64,000 nt of DNA from Dictyostelium discoideum (Eukaryota): contig CM000153.2 in the NCBI GenBank assembly GCA_000004695.1, positions 128,001 to 192,000 on the forward strand, read 5' to 3'. Below the pieces are notes generated by a model that had not been told where the DNA came from, ran no database searches, and worked only from the letters and a program-made list of their open reading frames with translations. Position numbers and translations under genes: made by a program. Below, one piece after another: positions 1 through 38,961 of the stretch. Positions within the stretch are counted from its first letter, which is position 1. Each line of letters starts with the position of its first letter.

Positions 1-5086
<5,086 letters not shown>

Positions 5087-10074: not shown

Positions 10075-11277
10075 ATGGGTACATGTGGATCGAAACCATC
10101 AAAAAATAAAAACAACAAAACAAATATAAAAAAGAATAATAAAAATAATAAAGATACAAAGAGATTAAGTTCAAATCTATCAAAGAATGGTGGTAGTACG
10201 TCATCATCATTACAACAATTTGATAATGGTATAAATGGTGGAGATGCAAAGAAATTTCATGACGAACATAAGAATAATTTAAATCAAGTTGCATTGAATT
10301 GGAAACCAAATACCATTGGAATTTGGAAGAGATCACATGAAAAGTTAGCAATTCATACCGATATACCAAGATTAGGACACAAGATTGAAATTATAGATAA
10401 AATGGATAGACTTCAAAATATTAGTTTTTCAAATGTTACTTCAATCTCTTTAAATAATAATATTATACCACCAAATAATAATACTGATATAAAGAGTAAA
10501 GATGATGGTGGTAATGATAATGATAATAATAAAGAAAATGAAGAACAACAACAAGAACAATTAGAACAACAAGAAAAACAATCAATTGAAGTAACACCAA
10601 AATCTGAACAATTAATTGAACATAATTCAAAATATACATCATTGACAACGTTAACATCACATGGTACATTTTCAACAGCACAAGTATTGAAAAAAGAAGA
10701 GGTAGTATATCAAGTTTTAACCAATTTAGCTCATCTATTAGATGGTGAGGAGAAAGAAAAGAGAATAAAAAGTACATTTTCAAACTATATTAAAGGATCT
10801 GGTGATATGTCACAACAACTATTGGCATTATTGGGTCAAGAAGTTGGTGAGAATAGTAGATTGATGCAATTGTTGAAAGTTTGTCATCAGAAAATCATTC
10901 TTCCAAGTTATTATTTCATCAAGGCAAATCTATTTGAAGAATTACCATTCAGAGATAAAAGAGGTAGTTGGAGAATGAGAATCACCTTTGAAACTGATGG
11001 ATCTGTGATTGCATCTCATTCAAAACGACAACAATCAACAGCTGGTGCTGAAAATGATCCTGAATTCGAATTTGAATGGTGTCTCTCCATTATCTTTGAT
11101 AAAGATATGGTCATTAGTGGTCTAAAGGTTGAAGTGACCGATTTAATCATTAGTAAAAATATTTCAGACGATAAAAAACAAGAAATTCAACGTGCTTTCC
11201 AAGTTTTACAACAAGCTACAAATAATACAAATAGTAATAATAATTCTGAACCAATACCATTAAATAAAGTCGATTAA
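10075..11277 (+). CDS. Hypothetical 400-aa protein with a consensus N-myristoylation and palmitoylation signal (MGTCGSK).
   Basis: This is an uninterrupted ORF with normal Dictyostelium codon composition. The N-terminus has Met-Gly at positions 1-2, Cys at 4 and Ser at 6. I could not assign a domain from memory. The ORF lies immediately downstream of an (ATT)n tract at 9984..10046. Confidence 0.55.
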   Translation: MGTCGSKPSKNKNNKTNIKKNNKNNKDTKRLSSNLSKNGGSTSSSLQQFDNGINGGDAKKFHDEHKNNLNQVALNWKPNTIGIWKRSHEKLAIHTDIPRLGHKIEIIDKMDRLQNISFSNVTSISLNNNIIPPNNNTDIKSKDDGGNDNDNNKENEEQQQEQLEQQEKQSIEVTPKSEQLIEHNSKYTSLTTLTSHGTFSTAQVLKKEEVVYQVLTNLAHLLDGEEKEKRIKSTFSNYIKGSGDMSQQLLALLGQEVGENSRLMQLLKVCHQKIILPSYYFIKANLFEELPFRDKRGSWRMRITFETDGSVIASHSKRQQSTAGAENDPEFEFEWCLSIIFDKDMVISGLKVEVTDLIISKNISDDKKQEIQRAFQVLQQATNNTNSNNNSEPIPLNKVD

Positions 11278-21066: not shown

Positions 21067-23575
21067 TTATCTAGTAATTGTATATTTATTATTACCACTT
21101 TTTAAAATCATTCCTTGATTATTTAAACCTTCTAAAACATCATTAAAATTTTCAAAAGGTAATTTATATTCTTTAACAATTTGTAAGAGTTCTTGTTTTG
21201 AAAAAGTTGATGTACCAGTTTTTGAGGCTTCTTTATTGAAAATTGAAATATATTTTTTAGATAAACCACTTTTACTCATACCAGTGGCTCTTCTAAAATC
21301 AATATTACCATGTTCATCTTCAAAAGTATCCAAAAGTGAATCTCTCATAATCTCTACGATATCGATTGCATCTTGTTCTGTAACGGTTTCACGTAATTCA
21401 AGTTTTGCTCTTGCTTCTGCTAAACGAATTAATGATTCCAATTGACGAGTTGTAACTGGCATTGAATCAGAACCTGTAGATTTTGAACGAAGTTCTAAAT
21501 AAAATTTTTGTATAACTTTAATTGCCTCTTCTGAAAGTCTTGGTGAAACATATTTCTTTGCATAACTTATATATTTTCTAAGGATAACTGTTGGAATTAA
21601 ATTAATCTCTTGACCATGAGTTATTAATAATTTTTGTTTTAATGGTAATGATTTATCATGATCTTCTTCATGAGTATATTGAGATGAATTTGTTGTTGCC
21701 GAGGATGATGATGATGATTGTTGAGGTTTTCTTTTTTTAACGCCTGATCCATTTGAATGAAGATTTAAAATATTATGAGAGATAATATGATCCTTTTCAG
21801 TGTTTGGTTTATCCATTAAAATGAAAATTAAATCGAATCTACTGAGTAGTGGTGCACTCATTTTGATATTTTCTGAAACTGTCTTTGCACGATTATAATG
21901 ACCCCCGACTGGATTAGCAGCAGCAACTACAGATGTACGAGCTGGTAAATTACAAACAATACCAGCCTTTGCAATACTAACCGATTGTTGTTCCATTGCT
22001 TCGAGTAGAGCAGGATGTTCATCTGTCATCTTATCGAATTCATCTATACAACAACAACCTTGATCCGCCAATACCAAAGCACCAGCTTCAATTGCAAAAT
22101 CACCTGAACCTTTTTCTCTTAACAATGTTACAGTTAAACCTGTTGTACTTGAATAGCCACCACAAACATAAACACCACGAGGTGATAAATGATAGATCGA
22201 TGTTAACATTTGACTTTTACCTAAACCAGGATCACCAACAATTAAAACATGTGGATCCGATCTAATTGATAGTTTATTCTTGTCGGATCCATTACTACTT
22301 CTATTTGGACTACCACCAAACAAAGCCAATGTTAAACCTGCTTTAACCAATTCATGCCCATAGATGGTTGGACAAATTGAATTTGAAATTAATTTGAAAA
22401 TATTTGGATGTTCAGCAATCTCTTTAATACCATACATATCCTTTAAAGAGAAGGAGGTAGTTTCAATCTTTCCTCCATTGCCACTAGTTCTCTTTGGGGA
22501 ATCTATAGAGTTTACATCTATATAAATGAGGAAAACAGGTTTATTTTGATTTTGAAAACCTGTTTCCTCTGCTCTTAATACTTTTACAACACCACTAATG
22601 GTCACAATATCGCCAGGTACAATAGTTTCAACCATTTCATCGGTGATTTCACATTCAAATGCTTTTGGTATACCACTTGATTCCTTTTGGTCGGCATCCT
22701 CTTGAATTCTAATTTTTTGCCAATCTATAGTGACGGCGGTTGATCTATCCGGTTCGAATATTTTACCTCTACAACCATGATTTAAACAATTTGAAGGAAA
22801 TGTAACTTTTCCCTCTGTAAAATATTGTGTTGGTGTACGTGTTGAACATTTATTACAAATGAATTGCATTTGAGTTACCAATGGTTTAACATTACCAACA
22901 CGAATTACAGTACCTTTTAATGAAACAAATTTATCAATAAGATTTGCTTTCAATTTCTTTAATTGTAATAATGGTTCAAAATGAAATATCCTTATATTTA
23001 TCTTTTTCTTTGGTCTTTGACTCTCTGAAACATTTTCATATAATACTTGATAAATTACAACACCTAAACAATTAATTACCATTTCTGAATCATCTCTTAA
23101 TCTAATTTCAAATTGATCTTCTACTCTATAAATTTGATTTTTTAATAATTGATAATCTAATGGTATTGTATTATTTTCATCTGGTGCATAAAGTGTCTAA
23201 AATAATAATTTTAATTAATTTAATAAATCAATTAATAATTTTTGTATTATTTAATTTTTATCTTACCTCATTACAAACATCTCTAAAAAGTGGAAGTGAT
23301 AATTGAATGAATTGATGTCTCTTTTCAAGTATTGCCTCTTGATTTAATTTTTCATCACCATTTTCAATAATTTTATTTGTTTTTGGTGGGAAATATAGTT
23401 TATATCCAATTAACTCATCCAATTGCGGATGTTGTTGTTGTTGCTGCTGTTGTTGACTTTGTTCTCTTTGTATAGTTTGTTGAGATTTAAATTGGACATA
23501 GTCATCACCTTCACTATTATTTCTTCGAATAATTTGTGTATTTGTGTTATTATTATTATTATTATTATTATACAT
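21067..23575 (-). CDS. mcm8: DNA helicase MCM8 (MCM family AAA+). Exons are join(21067..23196,23267..23575), with intron 23197..23266 (GTAAGA...TTTAG, phase 0).
   Basis: LIVGDPGLGKSQML...GVYVCGGYSSTTGLTVTL...SGDFAIEAGALVLADQGCCCIDEFDKMTDEHPALLEAMEQQSVSIAKAGIVCNLPARTSVVAAANPVGGHYNRAKTVSENIKMSAPLLSRFDL is almost residue-for-residue human MCM8. It has Walker A, Walker B and the arginine finger. An N-terminal Zn-finger/OB region (CNKCSTRTP...CLNHGC) and C-terminal winged-helix region are present. Exon 1 adds a 103-aa low-complexity N-terminus. Confidence 0.85.
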
Positions 23576-23993: not shown

Positions 23994-24273
23994 CTACTTT
24001 TTAACAAAGAATTTGATTGATGCACCAATTACAACGGCAAGAATTAATAAAATCACAACGACTAAAATTATTATTCTCTTTTTTGATCTTGATTTATAAA
24101 CATATGCCTTTTCCAATTCTTCTACACCATATTCAATCTCTAAATCTGCTGTTGTAACATTATTATCTGCTTGAACTAACATTTCACCTTGTTCATCTAC
24201 CATCATTCTATATATTTTTTTTTTATTAATAATTTATTTATTTTAGGAAATAAAAAAATAAATAATAAATAAA

Positions 24274-24335
<62 letters not shown>

Positions 24336-24491
24336 AAATTTTTACTTTAAATCATCCATTGCACCTTTTAAATGATATATATCTTGAGCTAAATGTTTTG
24401 CTTGTTCATTTCTTTCGGATAATAAAGTTTCTTCGTAATCAAAACTCCCATCATCTTCAAGTAATGGTTGTTTTAATGGTACATATGACAT
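23994..24491 (-). CDS. Small syntaxin-like Q-SNARE of about 119 aa: a SNARE motif with a zero-layer Gln, followed by a C-terminal transmembrane anchor and no Habc domain. Exons are join(23994..24207,24346..24491).
   Basis: The spliced product is MSYVPLKQPLLEDDGSFDYEETLLSERNEQAKHLAQDIYHLKGAMDDLK|MMVDEQGEMLVQADNNVTTADLEIEYGVEELEKAYVYKSRSKKRIIILVVVILLILAVVIGASIKFF. This parallels the syntaxin-1 SNARE motif (...[45 protein letters not shown] + TM). The donor is GTAAAA and the acceptor is ATATAG, phase 2. Confidence 0.7.
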
Positions 24492-25607
24492 TATTGTTAT
24501 ATTTTATTTTTTTACTAGTATTATGTTTTTAAAATTTAGCTAAAAAATTTAAATGTATTTTATTTTATTTTTTATGTCTTTTTGATTATTTTTTTTTTTT
24601 TATATTATTGAGAAAAAATAATAAAAAAAAAAAAAAAAATTAAAAAATTAAAAAATTAAAAAAAAAAAAAAAAAATAAAAAAAAAAATTGAAAAATACGT
24701 CACAAGATATTTTTTTTTTTTTTTTTTTTTTTTTAAGGTTAATTTAAATAATTATTAATCGAACAAATAAAAAAGTAATACATTTGACAACTTTACCTTT
24801 ATAAAAAATTTTAAATAAATTATAATTACTTTTTAAATAAATAAAAAATTTTAAAATTTAAAATTTAATAAAAATAAAATAAAATATTGATTAAAATTTT
24901 TTTTTTTTTTTTTAATTTTATATATCTTCTTTTTTTTTTTTTTGATTTTATCTCTTAAAACTATTATTACTTGTTCCACTCCAAATTTTATAAAAAAAAT
25001 AAATAAATAAATAACTTAAAAAAATAAAAAAAAAATAAAAATAAAAAATGTTGTCCTCCTAAAAAATTTTTCGTTTTTTTTTTTTTTTTCATTTTCCATT
25101 TTTTTTTTTATTTTTATTTTTATTTTTTATATTTCATTTTGGGTTGTAAAACGAAAACTTTACTTTCGTTCAAAAATAAAAATGAATAGAAAAAAGCAAA
25201 AGAAATTAAGTTCATTAAATGTAAATATTTTTTATTTTTTATTTTTTATTTTATTTTTTCATAAAATTTAATCATTCCTAATTATGTAAATTATTGAATA
25301 ATAATGTAAATAGTGGAAACTTGAAAAAAATAAGAAAAAAGATAACAACAATGAAAATGAACCATTATCAAATATTGAATATATAGAAAACTTATCATTA
25401 TTTAAATTTAAACAATTAATAAATTCAGCAAGTAGTAAAGATGTTGAAAAAGGTTTATATTCAATTAATAAATTAATTAGAGATGAAAAAGAACGTGAAC
25501 CATCTGAAGACGATGATGATGATGATGATGATGATGACAATCAATTAAATTATAAGAATAAAAGATTATCAATTGTATTTGAATTTTTAAAATCATCACA
25601 ACAATCA

Positions 25608-27419
25608 ATGACAGAAATTTTTAAGATATGGGATTTATGTATTGACAAATATCAAATTTATCAAAATGTTTATTCACTATTATTAGAGTTTATTGCAATT
25701 TTAATTACAATTAATGATGATCCATCACTTTCACATTATTCAAAAATTTTAGCTGATAAAATCCTCTCAAATAAATTTCAAGATTTATTAAAACTTATTA
25801 ATAACTATACTGATGAAACTGTTAATTTAACTTTAAATTGTTTTAGATTATTATCTTCAATTGTACCATTATCTTTAAAAATTGCAAAATCAATTCAAAC
25901 TAATATTGATTTTTCATCACAAGTAAGTTTTTTAAAAAAAATTAATAATTATTATTAAATTTTTTAACTTTTTTTAACATTTTTTATTTTTTTTAGGGAT
26001 TCCAAAAAGCAATGAATGATATTTCAATTAATGGTGCATATCTTGGAACAAGACCATATGTTTTAAGATTTTTATTATCATTTTTAAAACATCATAATAT
26101 TAAACTTAGTGAATTCATTTTGGAGAATGATCAATTACTTGTAAAATATTGTCAAAAATTACAATTGGACCATCATAATGTAATTATTAATTAATTTTAG
26201 TATTTAATTTTAGTATTTAATTTAATTTTATTTTATTAATTATTTAAATATATATAAATATAAATATAAATAAATATAGGTTATATTAGATTTAATTGAA
26301 TCATTAGAAGTTAATGTATTAAAAGTATCAAATGTTTCAAAAATTTTAAAAATTAAATTCTTTTCAACATCATTTTTATCAAAAATTGGTTTAATATTTT
26401 CAAAAGATGATATTGGTGAAGATTGTCGTCAATCAATTTTTAAATTTCTTTCAATTTTATGTTGTTCATCAACTCATGGTATTATATCATCTGATCCAAA
26501 GTATGTAGTAGTTATTATTTATTTATTTGTTATTTTTTATTATTTTTATTAATTTATTATCAAAATTTTTTTAAAAATTTTTTTAGATGGACATGGTTTA
26601 GAGATAATGAAAATCCAAGTTTTGAAAATAAATCATTAGTATCATTAATTTCAGAATTAAATCCAATTGCATATCAAACTCATCAAACATTATTTATAAA
26701 GATTATTAATTCATGTCCAGATTTATTTACATCATATTTGAAAAAGTTGGGAACATGTGAAGTATCGTTATCATTGAATTGGTTAAACAGAACTACAATG
26801 TTAATAAAGACATTATCATCACCAGTACCAAAAGCACCAATCACTAAAATCAGTGATAAACTATTGGACCCAATTCCATCATCACCAATTGTATTAATTA
26901 ATTGTTTAATACCACCACAAGTTACAAATTTACAATTTGGTTTCGATCAACAACATCAATTAGTAATTTATAATCAATTATTAGTTTTATTATTATGTTT
27001 AAAAAGAATAAATCAAGTTTTAAATTCATTAAATATTTATTTTATTGAAAAATCAAATAGTAGCAATAATAATAATAATAATAGCAAGGAGGATAAAGAA
27101 ATTGAAAAATTAAATCAATTTATTATAAATTTAAAAAATGGTATTAAAGAAAGGTTACCACAATTTAGATATTTTAAAGAGAATTATAATCAATTTAAAC
27201 AATCATCAGTATTATATAATCAATTCATTTCAATCATTAGTGAATATTTTAGATTCTTACCAATTAATGATTTCATTTCATTGAAAATGTTTGATTATCA
27301 ATTTTTATTAACATCAGATTTATATACACAAAAACAATTTATTCAATTAATTGGTAATTCAAAATCATTTCATTCAACTTTAAATTTATTTAATCGTACA
27401 AATGATAATAATAATAATT

Positions 27420-27474
<55 letters not shown>

Positions 27475-29165
27475 TGGTGATTCAATTATAACAATGTTAT
27501 TAAAATTATATTTAAATTCAAAATCAATTGAAATTAAAGAATTATATGGTCAATTAATATTTAAATTATTATCAACAAATTCAATATTCTCTGGTGTTGA
27601 TCATGAAATTGATTGTTGGTTAGAATCATTGCAATCAAATGAAAATATTGAATTCTTTGAAGGTACACTTATTAATGCTCATCAAAATAAATTTCAATAT
27701 GTTGATCAATGTCAAATTGAATCAAAGAAATTATTTGGTCAGGATTTAAATCAATTATTAATTAGTCCATTAATAGTGTCAACAATATTTCAACTTTTAA
27801 CAAATTCACAATCTTGTTTAAACCAACATCAATACATTTCAAATTTATTAAATAATATTTCAAATTGTAAAATTAATTCTTTAATAATTTTATCAATTTT
27901 TAATTTTATAATAAAAAAAATGAAAAATCAAGATAAAATGGATGATGATAATGATGATGATCAATCAATATTACCATCTGATTATAATTTACCAATTGAA
28001 TATAATGAAACTTTAAATTATATTTATTATAAAGCATATTCAAAATACCCAAAAGATTATAAAATTTCCTCCTCTTCTTCAAATTTTAAATCTCAATTAA
28101 TTTCATGTTCATCACCAAATGATATTAAATTTATAATTTCAAATAATATTCAACATTCAATTTTATCATTAATAATTTTAGAAATTGAACAACAACAACA
28201 ACAACAACAGCAACAACAAGAATCATTGAATAAATTATTAACAATATTAAAAGTTTCACCAATTAATTTAATTTTATCTCAAATTAATTTATTATCAAAA
28301 AATGAAAAAGAAATTTTATTTAAAAACAATTTAGTTAAATCAATTTTATTAAATTCAATTTCAAATTTATCATTAAAGAAATTATTCATCTTATTCCCAA
28401 TAATTGAAAATTTAATTGAAAATCATGAAAATCAAACTACAGCAACCACAACAACAACAACAGCAACTGAAGATATTTTAGATTTAGAATTTGATTTTTA
28501 TTTTGATTGTCTTGAAAAATCAATTAAAATGATTTTAGATTCAAAATCAATTTTATCATTACGTTTAATTGATCATTTATTTTCAAGTAAATTAATTTTA
28601 AATAATTTCTTATTAAACTTTAAATTTACATTTAGTAAGTATTTTTTTAAAAAATAATTATAATTATTATAATAATTTATTAATAATAGTTTATTAATAA
28701 TAATTTCTTTTTTTATTTCTTTTTTTTGTTTTATTTTAGATATTTCAAAATTATTATTAATAATTTTAAATAATGAAAATTCAAATAATGGTTTTAAATT
28801 TATAATACCATTATTAAAGAAATTATTAAAACAATTTAATAGTAAATCAATTAATAATTTCATTAAAAATAATGAAAAAGAAAATGATAAATTAATAATT
28901 TCAATCAGAGTTTTAGAATTAATATTACCATTTTTAGATTTTAATACTTGTATTGAATTATTAAATTCATTTAAAATTTTACAAATAAATCAATTAGCTT
29001 CAAATGAAATTATTTTACAAATTTATTTAGAAATTATAAATTCAACTTTACAATCAAATAATATCATTGATAATAATAATATTAATTTACCATCATACTT
29101 TAATTTAATAATTCCAAATTCTTCAAACTTGGATAAAAATATTAATAATAAATTATCAATTACAA

Positions 29166-29196
<31 letters not shown>

Positions 29197-29383
29197 TCAA
29201 ATTGACTCATTAAGAATAATATTTAATCAATTAATTCAATTATCAATTGAATTTAAAAATATTTATAAATATTCAACAGCAACAATTTATAGAGTTTCAA
29301 TTGATCAATTTATTTTACAACTTTTATTAATTGATATTAATCAAATTAAATATCCATTAAATTTAATTAATATTTTATTATCA

Positions 29384-29414
<31 letters not shown>

Positions 29415-31690
29415 ATGATGATCAATTATTAAACAAATATTCAAATTATTGTTTAGAGAATTATTCACCAACCACTTCAACAATTTTATCAATTTTATTA
29501 ATGATTAATTATAATAATAATAATAGTAATAATGGAAAAGAAATTAAATTAAATTATAAATTATTAAATTTAGATAATTTATTTAAATTTGATATAATGG
29601 TATGGTTATCATTATTTTATTGGTTAATTGTAATGAATAAGGATAAAGAATTATTATCAAATAAAAAGTTTTTAATTCAATTATTTAATTCAATTTCAAG
29701 TTCAAATATTTTCCAAAGAAAATTAACAACTGATGCCAATACTACTACTACTTTTAATTCAATAATTGAACTTTATCAAATAATTATAAATAATTTAGAG
29801 AAATCATCAAGTAGATCATTATTAATATTAAATTCAAAAGTTAATTATTTCTTATTAATGACAACAACAACAACAACAACATCAACAACATCATTAGATA
29901 AAACAAATGAAAATTATGAATATTTAAAAAATGAACAATTATCAAAATCAATCATTACAAATTATTTAAATAATTTAGAATCAAATTTAAATTTAAATAA
30001 CAAAATTTTATTAAATTTAAATTTAAATTGGTTTAACAATTTTAAAAAGTTATTTAATTTTTCAAGTTTTGATAAAATCATTAAATTAATATTTTCAAAT
30101 AGTAATTTCAATTCAAATGATTCTTTAAAATTAATTGAAAATTTAATTTTTAATTGTAATAGTAAATCTTTATTTAAATATCAATATTATATTGATTTAA
30201 TTTTTAAAGAGATTATAAATAATGATGAAATTTTAAATTTAATTAAATCAACACCAGTTTTAACTGATTTAATTATTGAAAATTTATATAATAATATCAA
30301 TAATATTAATAATAATAATAATAATAATAGTGAAAATATAATTAGATATCGTATACTTAATTTATTATTATCAATTTATAAGAGTGAACCAAATTTATGT
30401 CATTCTGGTAAAAATTTATCATCAATTTATTTTAGTATCTATAATGCAACAACTCATCCAATTGATCAAATTTTATTAAAAATCATTTATCAACATGATA
30501 GTAATAATCATTCTATCCTTGCTGAATCAAATTATCTTTGGGGAAAACATTCAAAAGAAACTTCAAGTATTAATCAATTATTACTTTCAAATACTTTCTT
30601 TTCTGGTATTCAATTTGAAAATTCAATTAATAATTATCCATTTGAAGTTAATACTTTAATTAATATAGAAGAAGAAGAAGAAGAAAAAGAAGATAATGAA
30701 GATAATAATAATAATAATAATAATAATTTAAATATTAATGAAAATTTAATTTCAAAATCATATAATGAATTTTCGTATGATCCATCATTTTTATTAAGAT
30801 TATTTATTTCATTATTGGATAGTTATATTTCAGAATATTCATTGTTAGATGATCAACAAGAAGATTTAAGAAGAGAGAATACTGATAACCTTTTGAAAAC
30901 AATTTGTTGTTTCTTTTATAATGGTCCATTTTCTTTTACTGTACGTTCAACAAGTTCAAAGCGATTATCAATTCGTCAATTGGCTTATTCAATATTTTCA
31001 AAGAATCAAACATTAATAAATATTTATAATAAGCAACTTGAAGCAACTCAAATTTCAAATATTGAAATATTTGGTATTGATGAAAAACAAAAGAAATCAA
31101 ACAACACAAACACAAAGAATAATAGTAAATATTCATTAAGTTCAAATAAATTCAATGAAAATATAATGTTTAAGATGATTCAAGTTTTAAAATCAACAAT
31201 TTTTGAAAAGGATCAATATATTCCATCGATTTTCACTCAATTCTATTGTAGTTCAATTAAAACTGTATCTTCTAAATCTGATTTAAATAGAAAAGCAATC
31301 ACTTCATACTTAAAGGGTATTGCTAGTTTTGATCTATTAGTAATTCCAATGTTTTCTGGTGTTTTTAATTTCACTGCTACAAAAAGCACAATTGTTTGGT
31401 TATTAGATTTATTAACTCAATCATTACCAGATGAACATACTGAACTATTATTAAAAAAGAATAATTACGTTCAATCTTTGTTAGCTCTATTCGATTCTTT
31501 CATTAGTTCAAGTAAAATTAAACTCTCAATACTAAATTGTTTATTAAAATTATCAACAACTTCAACTGGTATACAATTATTAATTAAACAAGGTATTTTA
31601 CCATGGTTATCAATTTTAGTTTCAAATTCAAGTTGTTTAAAATCTTATTTTGATTTAATTTTTAAATTATTTAATAATATTTTAATAACA

Positions 31691-31726
<36 letters not shown>

Positions 31727-32521
31727 TTAATATCAAATAATTTAGAAATTTCACAAATTTCAATTATTTTAAATAATTTATTAAAATTATTTTTAAATAT
31801 TAATTGGGATATTGAATTTAAATCAATGATTAATGATTATTTATTTTCATTAAAATCAATAATTAATTTAAATTCAACATTTATTAGATTATCAAATTCA
31901 GATTTAGTTTTATTAATTAAAAAATATCAACAACAACAACAACAAGAACAAGAAAGTGGTGATAATAAATTATTAGAATCAATTTTATCAATTGTATCAT
32001 GTTCAAAATTATCATTAATATCAAATGATTCAAATTTAGATGACAATTTCATTTTCAATTGGATTTGGAATCAATTAAATAACAATCAATTTAATAATGA
32101 TTCAAATATTATTGAACCAATCTTAAAATGGATACAAGATTCATTATTAACTTCAAAGAAACAATTCATTAATTGTTTATCAAAGAATCTCTCATTAAAT
32201 GGTGCTGCTGGTGAAGTCAAATTATTCAATCAATTATTAATTAAAGTTTGTCAAATAGATATTAAACTTTTAAATCATCAAGATTACCATCTCGAGACGA
32301 TTCAATTATTGCAATGTAAGAGATTAATTTGTAATATTATGATCTTATTAGCTCCACAACCACAAATAATGAATATCATTCAAAAGAAATATGATCAACA
32401 TCATTTCTATCAATTGTTGAGTGAAATTCAATCACCAAATAATCAAAAAATTGAAGATTTGAAATTATACAAAAACCATGTCAATAATGTTATCCAATAT
32501 TTAAAAGATTTATTTTTTTAA
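25608..32521 (+). CDS. Very large helical protein of about 2,180 aa with unknown function; no domain could be assigned from sequence. Exons are join(25608..25922,25997..26179,26280..26500,26587..28634,28740..32521). The frame is open back to an AG at 25313, so the true 5' end may be further upstream.
   Basis: Five track ORFs (25608.., 26012.., 26738.., 29129.. and the unlisted 26280 exon) are connected in frame by GT...AG introns. The donors are GTAAGT, GTAATT, GTATGT and GTAAGT. The acceptors follow polypyrimidine tracts. The splice phases are 0, 0, 2 and 1, and they match across each junction. The protein is leucine- and asparagine-rich and shows repetitive helical LLxxL patterning of the ARM/HEAT solenoid kind. 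Its size class matches URB1, INTS1 or NUP205, but I cannot discriminate between them. Confidence 0.6.
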
Positions 32522-32758: not shown

Positions 32759-33341
32759 TTAACCCCACGCCATTTGAAGGGAATAATTGATAATTAATTG
32801 ATCATTATGACTAAAACATTTATATAATTCACCTAAAATTTCATCTGGGCTTGGTTGAAAAACTTGATTTATAAATAAAAACTAAAAAAGATTATATATA
32901 TACGAATGAATTAGTATATGTATACATATTATATATATATACTAATAACCTGAATATTATATCATTTGGGGGTGTGATTTACTTACTAATGATTCATTTG
33001 ATTTTAATTTTAATTGCCCTCTTAATTTATCTATAACATTTTGAAATGAAACATTTGCCTGTATTTTAAATTTCTTTTGTTTTAATGGTTGTGCACCACC
33101 TGCATTCTTAAAATATACTATAACTGTTGTCAAAGAAAAATAAAAAAAAAATAATAAAAAATAAAAAAAAAAAAGAATTAGCACCAGCATTTCAATTATG
33201 CTAACTATTTTTTTAATGAATCTTACTTTTACTTTCGGATGTAATTTTAACTGGTAATTGAGGTTGCTGCTCTGTTGTTGATTCTGTATTTTGTTCTGTA
33301 GGTGATGCTACTTCATTATTATTTTTTTCTTCTTCCTCCAT
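32759..33341 (-). CDS. atg12: Ubiquitin-like autophagy protein Atg12 (124 aa). Exons are join(32759..32881,32987..33123,33227..33341).
   Basis: The spliced product is MEEEEKNNNEVASPTEQNTESTTEQQPQLPVKITSESK|IIVYFKNAGGAQPLKQKKFKIQANVSFQNVIDKLRGQLKLKSNESL|FLFINQVFQPSPDEILGELYKCFSHNDQLIINYSLQMAWG*. The ubiquitin fold and the C-terminal ...AWG glycine that is conjugated to Atg5 are both characteristic of Atg12. The donors are GTAAGA and GTAAGT. The acceptors are AACAG and TTTAG, with phases 1 and 0. Confidence 0.85.
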
Positions 33342-33930
33342 TCTCTATAAATGTATGTATTTGTTATAGTATGTATGTATTTATTCAATATGATTTTTTT
33401 TTTATGAAAAAATAAAAAAAAAAAATTTAATCTCACAAAAACAAAAAAAAAAAAATAAAAAAATAAAAAAAAAAAAATAAAAAAAAAAAAAAAATAAAAA
33501 TTAAAAAATCAAAAATGGACTGAATATTTAAGAATGAGTTTATAAATATCTTTTTTTTAATTCCTTACTTGAAATAATAGAAAATATTCAATTTTAATGT
33601 TTTTGAGTGATCACTTTTTTAAAATTAAAAAAAAAAAAAAAAGATTTCTATGGTTTTCCAATTAAATTGTAAATTTTTTTATTTACATAAATTCTTTTTT
33701 TTTCTTTTTTTTCTTTTTTTTTTATTGGATAAATAAAGATTTTGTTTTTTTTTTTTTTTTATAATAAATTAAATATTTCTCTAAAGCTTGAACCACTTCT
33801 TGCAGTGCTCCACGCAGCGGTAACATATAAAAGTGAGGCGAATATATTAAAATAATTTGTCCAAGGTAAATATTGAGGGAAGAAAGCTAAATATAGTGAA
33901 TAGATTGTACAAAAAAATAATCCTGTCTGA

Positions 33931-34092
<162 letters not shown>

Positions 34093-34155: not shown

Positions 34156-34848
34156 TTATGAACATACTTGTCTTTTCCAAGCGGTATTTCTTGATAATAA
34201 GAAAGAAGAGATGAAAAAGATCCAACTCTTTCTAGCAGCATTTGAAATTGCTTCTAATAATAATAATGAAATATGATTTCTAGATTCTTTTTGACCTAAA
34301 GAGGGTACGACGACATGAAGTAATCTTGATTTCTTTTGTTTTCCAATATACATAAGTATTCTACTGATACTAACCCAAATTCCCAATAAAAAGTTTGAAG
34401 TGATTAACACTCTTCTTGCATATTTCAAACCCCAAGCATTTCTACCCTCTGATCTTTGTTCTTCCTCTAATTCTCTTACTTTTTTCTTTAATGAATCAAC
34501 TTCATTCAATATGAAATTAATTTGATTTATAAAGTCTTCTTTTTGTTGTTGTGATATATTATTATTAATATTATTATTATTATTATTATTAATAGAATTA
34601 TTATTATTGTTGTTGTTGCTATTATTGTTATTGTTATTGTTATTATTACTATTAGTAGTGGTAGCAGCAGTGGTAGAAGTAGCTGTAGCATTAGTAGTAG
34701 TAGTAATAGCATTGTTAGTGTTGCTAGTATTGTTATTATTATTATTATTATTATTACTATTTGGAGAATATGGATTACCATATAATGAAGCTAAATTGTT
34801 TGGGTATTGAGTTGGTGTTTGAGGTGATAAATTTGGTGATCCAATATT

Positions 34849-34923
<75 letters not shown>

Positions 34924-35147
34924 TGGTTGTTGTTGATATTGTTGTTGTAAATAAAATTGAAATATTCTGTTTGGTATTTTATTGCTACTATTACCATTAT
35001 TATTATTATTATTATTGTTATTATTTTGTACAGTTGAGGTTGTAGTAGATGACATGTTTGGTGAATTCATTAAATTTAAAAATGGTGTACTTTTACTTCT
35101 TTTTATTGTTTCTGAGTTATTATTATTAAAATTACTATTACTATTAA

Positions 35148-35240
<93 letters not shown>

Positions 35241-35598
35241 TATTATTGTTATTATTATTATTATTATTATCATGAGAATTATTATTATTATTAAAATTTA
35301 AAAAAGAGCCAAATGAATCATCTCCTTTCTTATATCCAATACTATTATTATTATTATTATTAATATTATTATTATTATTATTATTTATATTAAAATTATT
35401 TGAAAAAGATGAATTATTTAATACAGTTGGGGGTGTTGGTGATCTACTGTAATCATTATATTCAGTAAGGGGAAGAAGTTCATTACTATCATTATTATTA
35501 TTATTATTATTATTACTATTATTTATATTGATACTACTACTATTATTAAAATTACCCCCTCCTGTTATTGTGTTGTTGCTGCTATTATTGTCAAACAT
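34156..35598 (-). CDS. Membrane protein with an Asn-rich N-terminus, a coiled coil and two or three predicted transmembrane segments (TMCC-like topology). A possible additional 3' exon at 33722..33886 is reported under findings.
   Basis: The ORF starts MFDNNSSNNTITGGGNF..., has about 250 aa of poly-Asn low complexity, then the coiled-coil segment FINQINFILNEVDSLKKKVRELEEEQRSEGRNAWGLKYARR. Hydrophobic segments follow: VLITSNFLLGIWVSISRILMYI and ISLLLLEAISNAARKSWIFFISSFLL. A GTATGT donor sits directly after ...AWKRQ at 34167/34166, before the annotated stop. Confidence 0.55.

Positions 35599-36285: not shown

Positions 36286-38961
<2,676 letters not shown>

Follow-up and report, generated by a model that had tools for sequence, protein, structure and literature searches.

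A six-exon gene of Dictyostelium discoideum very probably encodes the dictyostelid ortholog of URB1/Npa1

The window analyzed here is a stretch of 64,000 nucleotides of the Dictyostelium discoideum genome (contig CM000153.2, positions 128,001 to 192,000 of the forward strand). The locus at 25182-32521 on its plus strand is best read as a single six-exon gene, the product of which, a protein of 2,293 aa, is very likely (probability of about 0.95) the dictyostelid ortholog of URB1/Npa1 (nucleolar pre-ribosomal-associated protein 1). The locus is composed of the following features.

25182-25220, plus strand: exon 1, 39 nt, phase 0; contains the start codon; encoded peptide MNRKKQKKLSSLN; donor AAT/gtaaat
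25221-25313, plus strand: intron 1, 93 nt, 9.7% GC, GT..AG; its sole AG is the acceptor (aaatag/TGG)
25314-25922, plus strand: exon 2, 609 nt; ATG 25608 is codon 112, within this exon
25611-26788, plus strand: Npa1 domain (PF11707), aa 113-418, spanning introns 2 to 4
25923-25996, plus strand: intron 2, 74 nt, 6.8% GC, gtaagt..tag; orthologs align without gaps over the junction
25997-26179, plus strand: exon 3, 183 nt; joined in frame, with ortholog alignment
26180-26279, plus strand: intron 3, 100 nt, 4% GC, gtaatt..tag; position DHHN/VILD
26280-26500, plus strand: exon 4, 221 nt; absent from the list of open reading frames (ORFs), joined in frame
26501-26586, plus strand: intron 4, 86 nt, 8.1% GC, gtatgt..tag; splits a codon, position SSDPK/WTWF
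26587-28634, plus strand: exon 5, 2,048 nt; long open frame
28635-28739, plus strand: intron 5, 105 nt, 6.7% GC, gtaagt..tag; splits a codon, position FKFTF/NISK
28740-32521, plus strand: exon 6, 3,782 nt; TAA stop at 32519-32521
30929-31606, plus strand: NopRA1 domain (PF16201), aa 1764-1989, a Pfam match

The spliced coding sequence of 6,882 nt contains a single stop codon, the terminal one. All introns are of the GT..AG type, short (74-105 nt) and poor in GC (4-10%; 7% for introns versus 18.7% for exons), and each of them introduces in-frame stops on read-through. Given that ~10% of codons would be stops in this composition, frames of 683 and 1,260 codons would stay open by chance with probabilities of ~1e-31 and ~5e-58, respectively. 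The translation of exon 4 shows 70-77% identity to Dictyostelium purpureum in tblastx, and an alignment of five dictyostelid species is collinear and gap-free at all five junctions. The splice junctions, that of exon 1 to exon 2 especially, were all placed from the sequence and the ortholog alignment, and the ortholog gene models used for comparison are themselves predictions. The original prediction had joined five exons (25608-25922, 25997-26179, 26280-26500, 26587-28634, and 28740-32521) into a product of 2,182 aa, and this chain proved sound, with canonical GT..AG introns and the only stop at 32519-32521. Its picture of one multi-exon gene of transcript size, encoding a very large helical, solenoid-type product without a catalytic domain, was likewise supported. 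The product is also the largest in the window that the ORF list allows, the next being a hybrid histidine kinase of ~1,535 aa (336-5086), and it is rich in Leu (14.6%) and Asn (14.3%), as had been noted, followed by Ile (11.9%) and Ser (10.8%). Two antisense ORFs, 28573-28863 and 25268-25540 on the minus strand, were rejected as genes, being of low complexity and straddling intron/exon boundaries. No tRNA genes or Rfam families were found within the window.

Where does this gene begin? A five-exon model starting at ATG 25608 would leave the open frame upstream as 5' untranslated region, and it has in its favor that this ATG is the first Met codon of exon 2 and that the five-exon coding sequence is clean. 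However, the same frame remains open, and free of ATG, for 98 codons upstream of ATG 25608, back to the acceptor at 25313/25314. Residues 30-111, encoded upstream of that ATG, are conserved in the alignment of five dictyostelid species, with invariant positions such as N39, L40, F45, I68, R69, D70, E71, K72, and E73, and the segment 25371-25508 is 78% identical to D. purpureum in tblastx. Furthermore, the 13-residue exon 1 peptide, MNRKKQKKLSSLN, is identical at 12 of 13 residues to the N-terminus of the D. purpureum ortholog (P0001), MNRKKQKKLNSLN, and matches the N-termini of the other dictyostelid orthologs as well. A start at ATG 25608 is thus improbable. As read from the sequence, the five-exon model is short of exon 1 and of 111 N-terminal residues, and both its start and its exon count give way to a six-exon gene of 2,293 aa beginning in the upstream exon at 25182-25220.

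The family assignment is carried by two Pfam domains. The Npa1 domain was matched at E=2.1e-53 (182.2 bits versus a gathering cutoff of 22.7), covering profile positions 2-330 of 331, and the NopRA1 domain at E=3.4e-14 (53.3 bits versus a cutoff of 29.6), covering profile positions 1-199 of 199. Npa1 and NopRA1 are curated Pfam families specific to URB1/Npa1, and their arrangement here, Npa1 N-terminal and NopRA1 towards the C-terminus, is the order of the URB1/Npa1 family. At E<=1, the Pfam scan returned beyond these two only one sub-threshold chance match (SoFic-like_C) and no UTP20/DRIM, nucleoporin, or Integrator families. The gene had been described as having no assignable function, a verdict overturned by the two families scoring above their gathering cutoffs and by the profile alignment to URB1 (probability of 100%) described below. 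Among the classes that had been suggested for it (nuclear pore, Integrator, URB1/UTP20, and trafficking scaffolds), URB1 is the one that held up; UTP20, nucleoporins, and Integrator dropped out with no Pfam match. Conservation had been pointed to in the C-terminal 400 aa (31300-32521); the best-conserved C-terminal block is NopRA1 (aa 1764-1989, 30929-31606), which begins upstream of 31300.

Orthologs with both PF11707 and PF16201 were found in all four other dictyostelids compared, D. purpureum, P. violaceum, T. lacteum, and A. subglobosum. The first three carry the UniRef name "Nucleolar pre-ribosomal-associated protein 1," and that of A. subglobosum is a "hypothetical protein." A profile of the C-terminal region retrieved 477 proteins at E<=1e-3 among 1.84 billion representatives, mostly 1.6 to 2.7 thousand aa long and aligned in their own C-terminal third. 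The matches sampled in molluscs and echinoderms are named "nucleolar pre-ribosomal-associated protein 1-like," that in Basidiobolus has the UniRef name "Nucleolar pre-ribosomal-associated protein 1," and that in Balamuthia is a [quoted passage not shown]; three of the four profile matches scanned possess both Pfam domains. With hhalign, the dictyostelid profile aligned to a mollusc/echinoderm/Basidiobolus/Balamuthia profile with a probability of 100% (E=5.9e-64) over 1,623 collinear columns, positions 36-1854 versus 30-1871. No exact match to the six-exon or five-exon product was found in a collection of 15 billion sequences. Word-indexed homolog searches with the C-terminal profile and with the 407-aa Npa1 region gave no match either, and since even the D. 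purpureum ortholog escaped them, we read their emptiness as a limit of candidate selection with an Asn/Ile/Leu-rich query rather than as absence.

The closest protein found is that of D. purpureum (DICPUDRAFT_25595, P0001), which has 2,206 aa, covers the full length with 52-57% identity, and shares the N-terminal peptide. In both species, MCM8, SNARE, and ATG12 genes are neighbors of URB1, although the small upstream SNARE gene lies in inverted orientation. Four of the five intron positions in the window (introns 2, 3, 4, and 5) coincide with those of D. purpureum, its intron after aa 210 corresponding to intron 2. In contrast, the D. purpureum model lacks intron 1 (after codon 13), so that its aa 1-210 are contiguous, and it has an additional intron at its own aa 1971 that is absent from exon 6 in the window. 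Within the window, the shared neighbors and intron positions favor orthology over paralogy with the URB1 gene of related species.

Could the exons instead belong to two or more genes, such as one for the N-terminal Npa1 domain and another for the C-terminal part? Nothing was found in favor of this, and a break could go unnoticed only in the middle of the protein (aa ~770-1560), which is of low complexity and poorly conserved. With the short, AT-rich introns removed, however, 2,293 codons run free of stops, the full length is covered by orthologs of 1,862-2,206 aa, the hhalign alignment to non-dictyostelid URB1 passes collinearly through the middle, and molluscs share the architecture of an N-terminal Npa1 and a C-terminal NopRA1. 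A division into separate genes is very hard to reconcile with these data. Equally remote is another giant solenoid scaffold resembling URB1 (UTP20, a nucleoporin, an Integrator subunit, or a trafficking adaptor), in favor of which the fold search offers beta-catenin, importins, and other generic ARM/HEAT proteins, but against which stand the Pfam result at E<=1 and the sampled named profile matches outside social amoebae, which are of URB1 type, one unnamed wasp protein aside.

An AlphaFold2 model of the C-terminal 731 aa (aa 1563-2293, from five sequences) is all-helical and of low confidence (mean pLDDT of 56.9), and its PDB fold matches are generic ARM/HEAT solenoids (TM of 0.2-0.37); these matches say nothing about function. 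When PDB was queried by sequence and by profile with the window protein, the dictyostelid profile, and one mollusc and one fungal URB1, only low-complexity or chance matches came up, and no solved structure of the URB1 family was among them.

What this protein does may be approached by analogy with yeast; no paper on Dictyostelium URB1 was found in the literature searched. Yeast Npa1/Urb1 is a large helical scaffold that aids construction of the earliest large-subunit precursor (PMC6136799, PMC8994135, PMC11879421); Npa1p is nucleolar, resides on 90S and the earliest pre-60S particles, and is needed for 60S production (PMC6136799). By orthology, we infer a backbone role for the Dictyostelium protein in the Npa1/Urb1 module, within the earliest pre-60S particle. 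It would act as a non-enzymatic alpha-solenoid scaffold (PMC6136799, PMC8994135, PMC11879421), the backbone of a module that also comprises Npa2/Urb2, Nop8, Rsa3, and the DEAD-box helicase Dbp6. By carrying this helicase into 90S and the earliest pre-60S particle, it would promote the folding and compaction of the large-subunit rRNA core at an early stage. The yeast and Dictyostelium proteins are both very large, lack a catalytic domain, are predicted to be helical, and have an N-terminal Npa1 and a NopRA1 towards the C-terminus, and the yeast protein is described as an alpha-solenoid scaffold. Yeast Npa1p is smaller, at 203 kDa (PMC6136799), than the 2,293-aa protein of the window, the two being compared through their Pfam families. 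The yeast system also features an snR190-type snoRNA. None of the partners Urb2/Npa2, Dbp6, Nop8, and Rsa3 was found among the ORFs scanned in the window. The window protein further differs from Npa1p by tracts of poly-Asn, poly-Gln, poly-Thr, and poly-Asp. Such homopolymer tracts are typical of this AT-rich genome.

Animal URB1 proteins, such as XP_033740037.1 of Pecten maximus and XP_067675055.1 of Haliotis asinina, fall in the same length class, with 2,239-2,261 aa, and have both Pfam domains at equivalent positions, yet identity to the dictyostelid protein in the profile alignment is only 17%, and the NopRA1 match of the latter, at 53 bits, is far weaker than those of animal URB1 (165-177 bits). 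The N-terminal extension (aa 14-111) is conserved and highly charged, with ten consecutive Asp residues, and the insertions in the solenoid are rich in homopolymers. A lineage-specific extra role of these segments, for example in binding basic ribosomal proteins, is conceivable but unlikely; ordinary URB1 function together with homopolymer expansion explains the observed features equally well.

Overall, this is an ordinary, intact URB1/Npa1 gene, already known in kind, and there is nothing remarkable about this copy of it. By this assignment, the largest gene of the window joins a conserved and well-defined family of ribosome-biogenesis proteins, and its 5' end is corrected, with little import beyond annotation. 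The early steps of pre-60S assembly are described in the yeast literature as among the least understood, and no PDB chain was found for the family; hence, a tractable ortholog may be of some use.

The product of the URB1 gene (2,293 aa), originally predicted to be a protein with no assignable function, belongs to two Pfam families and shows full-length homology to URB1 proteins. The Npa1 domain, "Ribosome 60S biogenesis N-terminal" (PF11707), spans aa 113-418 (E=2.1e-53), and the NopRA1 domain, "Nucleolar pre-ribosomal-associated protein 1" (PF16201), spans aa 1764-1989 (E=3.4e-14). Both matches exceed the curated thresholds and cover their profiles end to end; URB1 was among the several guesses first offered. 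The Pfam scan, taken to E<=1, showed neither an enzymatic domain nor any family of the UTP20, nucleoporin or Integrator type. The homolog search returned four dictyostelid proteins of 1,862-2,206 aa, all with PF11707 and PF16201; three bear the UniRef name "Nucleolar pre-ribosomal-associated protein 1," and the fourth, from A. subglobosum, has only the source label "hypothetical protein."

A profile built from the 731 C-terminal residues was run against 1.84 billion representatives with no word-index step. It matched 477 proteins at the E<=1e-3 level, 242 of them at E<=1e-10; the majority have 1.6-2.7 thousand residues and align through their C-terminal third. Among the sampled matches, those from molluscs and echinoderms are named "nucleolar pre-ribosomal-associated protein 1-like," that from the fungus Basidiobolus "nucleolar pre-ribosomal-associated protein 1" (UniRef), and that from Balamuthia [quoted passage not shown]; the others have no informative name. 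Both Pfam domains occur at equivalent positions in two mollusc proteins and one further dictyostelid among the matches scanned. Comparing profiles of the full-length dictyostelid alignment and of seven aligned URB1-type proteins gave a probability of 100% (E=5.9e-64) over 1,623 aligned columns, collinear between dictyostelid positions 36-1854 and positions 30-1871, indicating that homology covers the poorly conserved middle besides both named domains. The URB1 gene is intact and unremarkable within a known family that is widely conserved; its sister-species orthologs already carry the family label.

The C-terminal profile matched the dictyostelid homolog DFA_07764 of Cavenderia fasciculata (2,083 aa) over its full length (E=7.8e-41). 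This protein has no Pfam match at E<=1e-3, Npa1 and NopRA1 included, and reflects either unusual divergence or a faulty gene model.

The original gene model consisted of five exons that join in frame:

25608-25922, forward strand, exon 1
25997-26179, forward strand, exon 2
26280-26500, forward strand, exon 3, not among the listed ORFs
26587-28634, forward strand, exon 4
28740-32521, forward strand, exon 5, with the sole stop at 32519-32521

The joining holds: splicing gives 2,182 aa and one stop, the introns between these exons are all GT..AG (length, 74-105 nt; GC content, 4-8%), and reading through any intron of the gene meets in-frame stops. The window is very AT-rich (21% GC), and a random codon is a stop with ~10% probability at the local base composition. 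The chance of open stretches of 683 and 1,260 codons is near 1e-31 and 5e-58, placing the exon structure far beyond chance. GC content in the gene is 8.9% at third codon positions versus 23-24% at first and second, and the described Leu/Asn-rich composition is borne out (Leu 14.6%, Asn 14.3%, Ile 11.9%).

The 5' end of that model was incomplete. Preceding ATG 25608 are 98 Met-free open codons in the exon frame, reaching back to 25314, which adjoins an aaatag acceptor containing the only AG within the preceding 93 nt. A 39-nt exon starts at ATG 25182 and ends AAT/gtaaat; joining 25220 to 25314 preserves the frame and yields the N-terminus MNRKKQKKLSSLN-WKLEKN..., compared to MNRKKQKKLNSLN in the closest homolog (D. 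purpureum) and M-x-x-K/R-K in the other three. Residues 30-111 contain many invariant columns in the five-species alignment, including an IRDEKE motif, and 25371-25508 is 78% identical to D. purpureum (tblastx). The upstream open frame, the matching peptide of the 39-nt exon and the conserved residues together define a predicted six-exon gene at 25182-32521 encoding 2,293 aa, with the earlier initiator Met as residue 112.

All five junctions (N/W, FSSQ/GFQ, DHHN/VILD, SSDPK/WTWF and FKFTF/NISK for introns 1-5) lie within gapless conserved stretches of the five-species alignment. When the D. purpureum protein was mapped onto its own genomic locus to place its annotated introns, four coincided with introns 2-5 of the window gene. 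These shared positions support the junctions short of proof, the D. purpureum model itself being a prediction. Intron turnover between the two species is also seen: the intron after codon 13 (25221-25313) is absent from D. purpureum, which has an extra intron near its residue 1971 (about 10205-10281 of its locus, L001) that the window gene lacks.

The neighboring genes are as follows:

21067-23082, with further exon(s) up to about 23420, reverse strand, MCM8-type helicase
about 24075-24491, reverse strand, small SNARE-domain gene, upstream of URB1
about 32760-33341, reverse strand, ATG12 (ubiquitin-like autophagy protein), three exons read from the sequence
36286-38961, forward strand, WD40 protein gene

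The helicase, a replicative-helicase paralog, has MCM OB, P-loop, lid and MCM8 winged-helix domains. In D. purpureum the counterpart measures 807 aa, so the gene extends past the 671-aa ORF into further 5' exon(s). ATG12 lies directly downstream of URB1, tail to tail; its last exon ends ...QMAWG*, and its ORF 32957-33190 (reverse strand) matches Pfam APG12 (E=1e-7). The D. purpureum locus has the same order of MCM8, SNARE, URB1 homolog and ATG12, collinear by tblastx (ATG12 included) with the SNARE gene inverted, and this shared order supports orthology of the two URB1 genes. The SNARE gene (24075-24491, reverse strand) corresponds to 3196-3611 of L001 on the forward strand, with the orientations of MCM8, URB1 and ATG12 unchanged, a single-gene inversion between the two species.

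Elsewhere in the window, (ATT/AAT)n trinucleotides form a perfect array of about 160 nt (33930-34092) just past the 3' end of a 480-aa ORF (34156-35598, reverse strand) with no Pfam match; an intergenic microsatellite or a poly-Asn-coding exon could account for the array. A hybrid histidine kinase of about 1,535 aa, the window's second-largest product, is formed by two adjacent ORFs (336-5086, forward strand), the first with PAS and HisKA and the second with HATPase_c and receiver domains; an intron of ~140 nt (2565-2704) probably separates them.

No protein in the searched collections was closer to the URB1 product than 52-57% identity; the exact product was absent, as was any representative of a cluster expected to include the source species or D. 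purpureum. Known orthologs were also overlooked by two word-indexed searches. The proteome of the source species therefore seems to be missing or masked in the collections that could be searched.

Queries with the protein, its profile, and one mollusc and one fungal member found no chain of the URB1/Npa1 family in the PDB copy searched. For residues 1563-2293, the AlphaFold2 model from the five-sequence alignment is helical throughout but has low confidence (mean pLDDT 56.9; 65-85 in the best stretch). In the PDB, Foldseek matched it to beta-catenin, importin alpha/beta and Vac8, all at low TM-scores (0.2-0.37) and with an rmsd >8 Å. The model fits a generic ARM/HEAT-like alpha-solenoid and nothing more specific.

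No study of this gene in Dictyostelium was found among the papers searched. In Saccharomyces cerevisiae, the complex that contains Npa2p, Nop8p, Rsa3p and the DEAD-box helicase Dbp6p has Npa1p/Urb1p as its backbone; insertion of Dbp6p into 90S particles requires Npa1p, and the first pre-60S particle is depleted on Npa1p loss (PMC6136799). Npa1p also assembles with the snR190 snoRNP outside pre-ribosomes (PMC11879421). As a probable full-length ortholog, the window protein most likely has the same role, by analogy with yeast: it would be a noncatalytic scaffold placing a helicase together with snoRNPs on the nascent rRNA of the large subunit, to promote compaction of its core.
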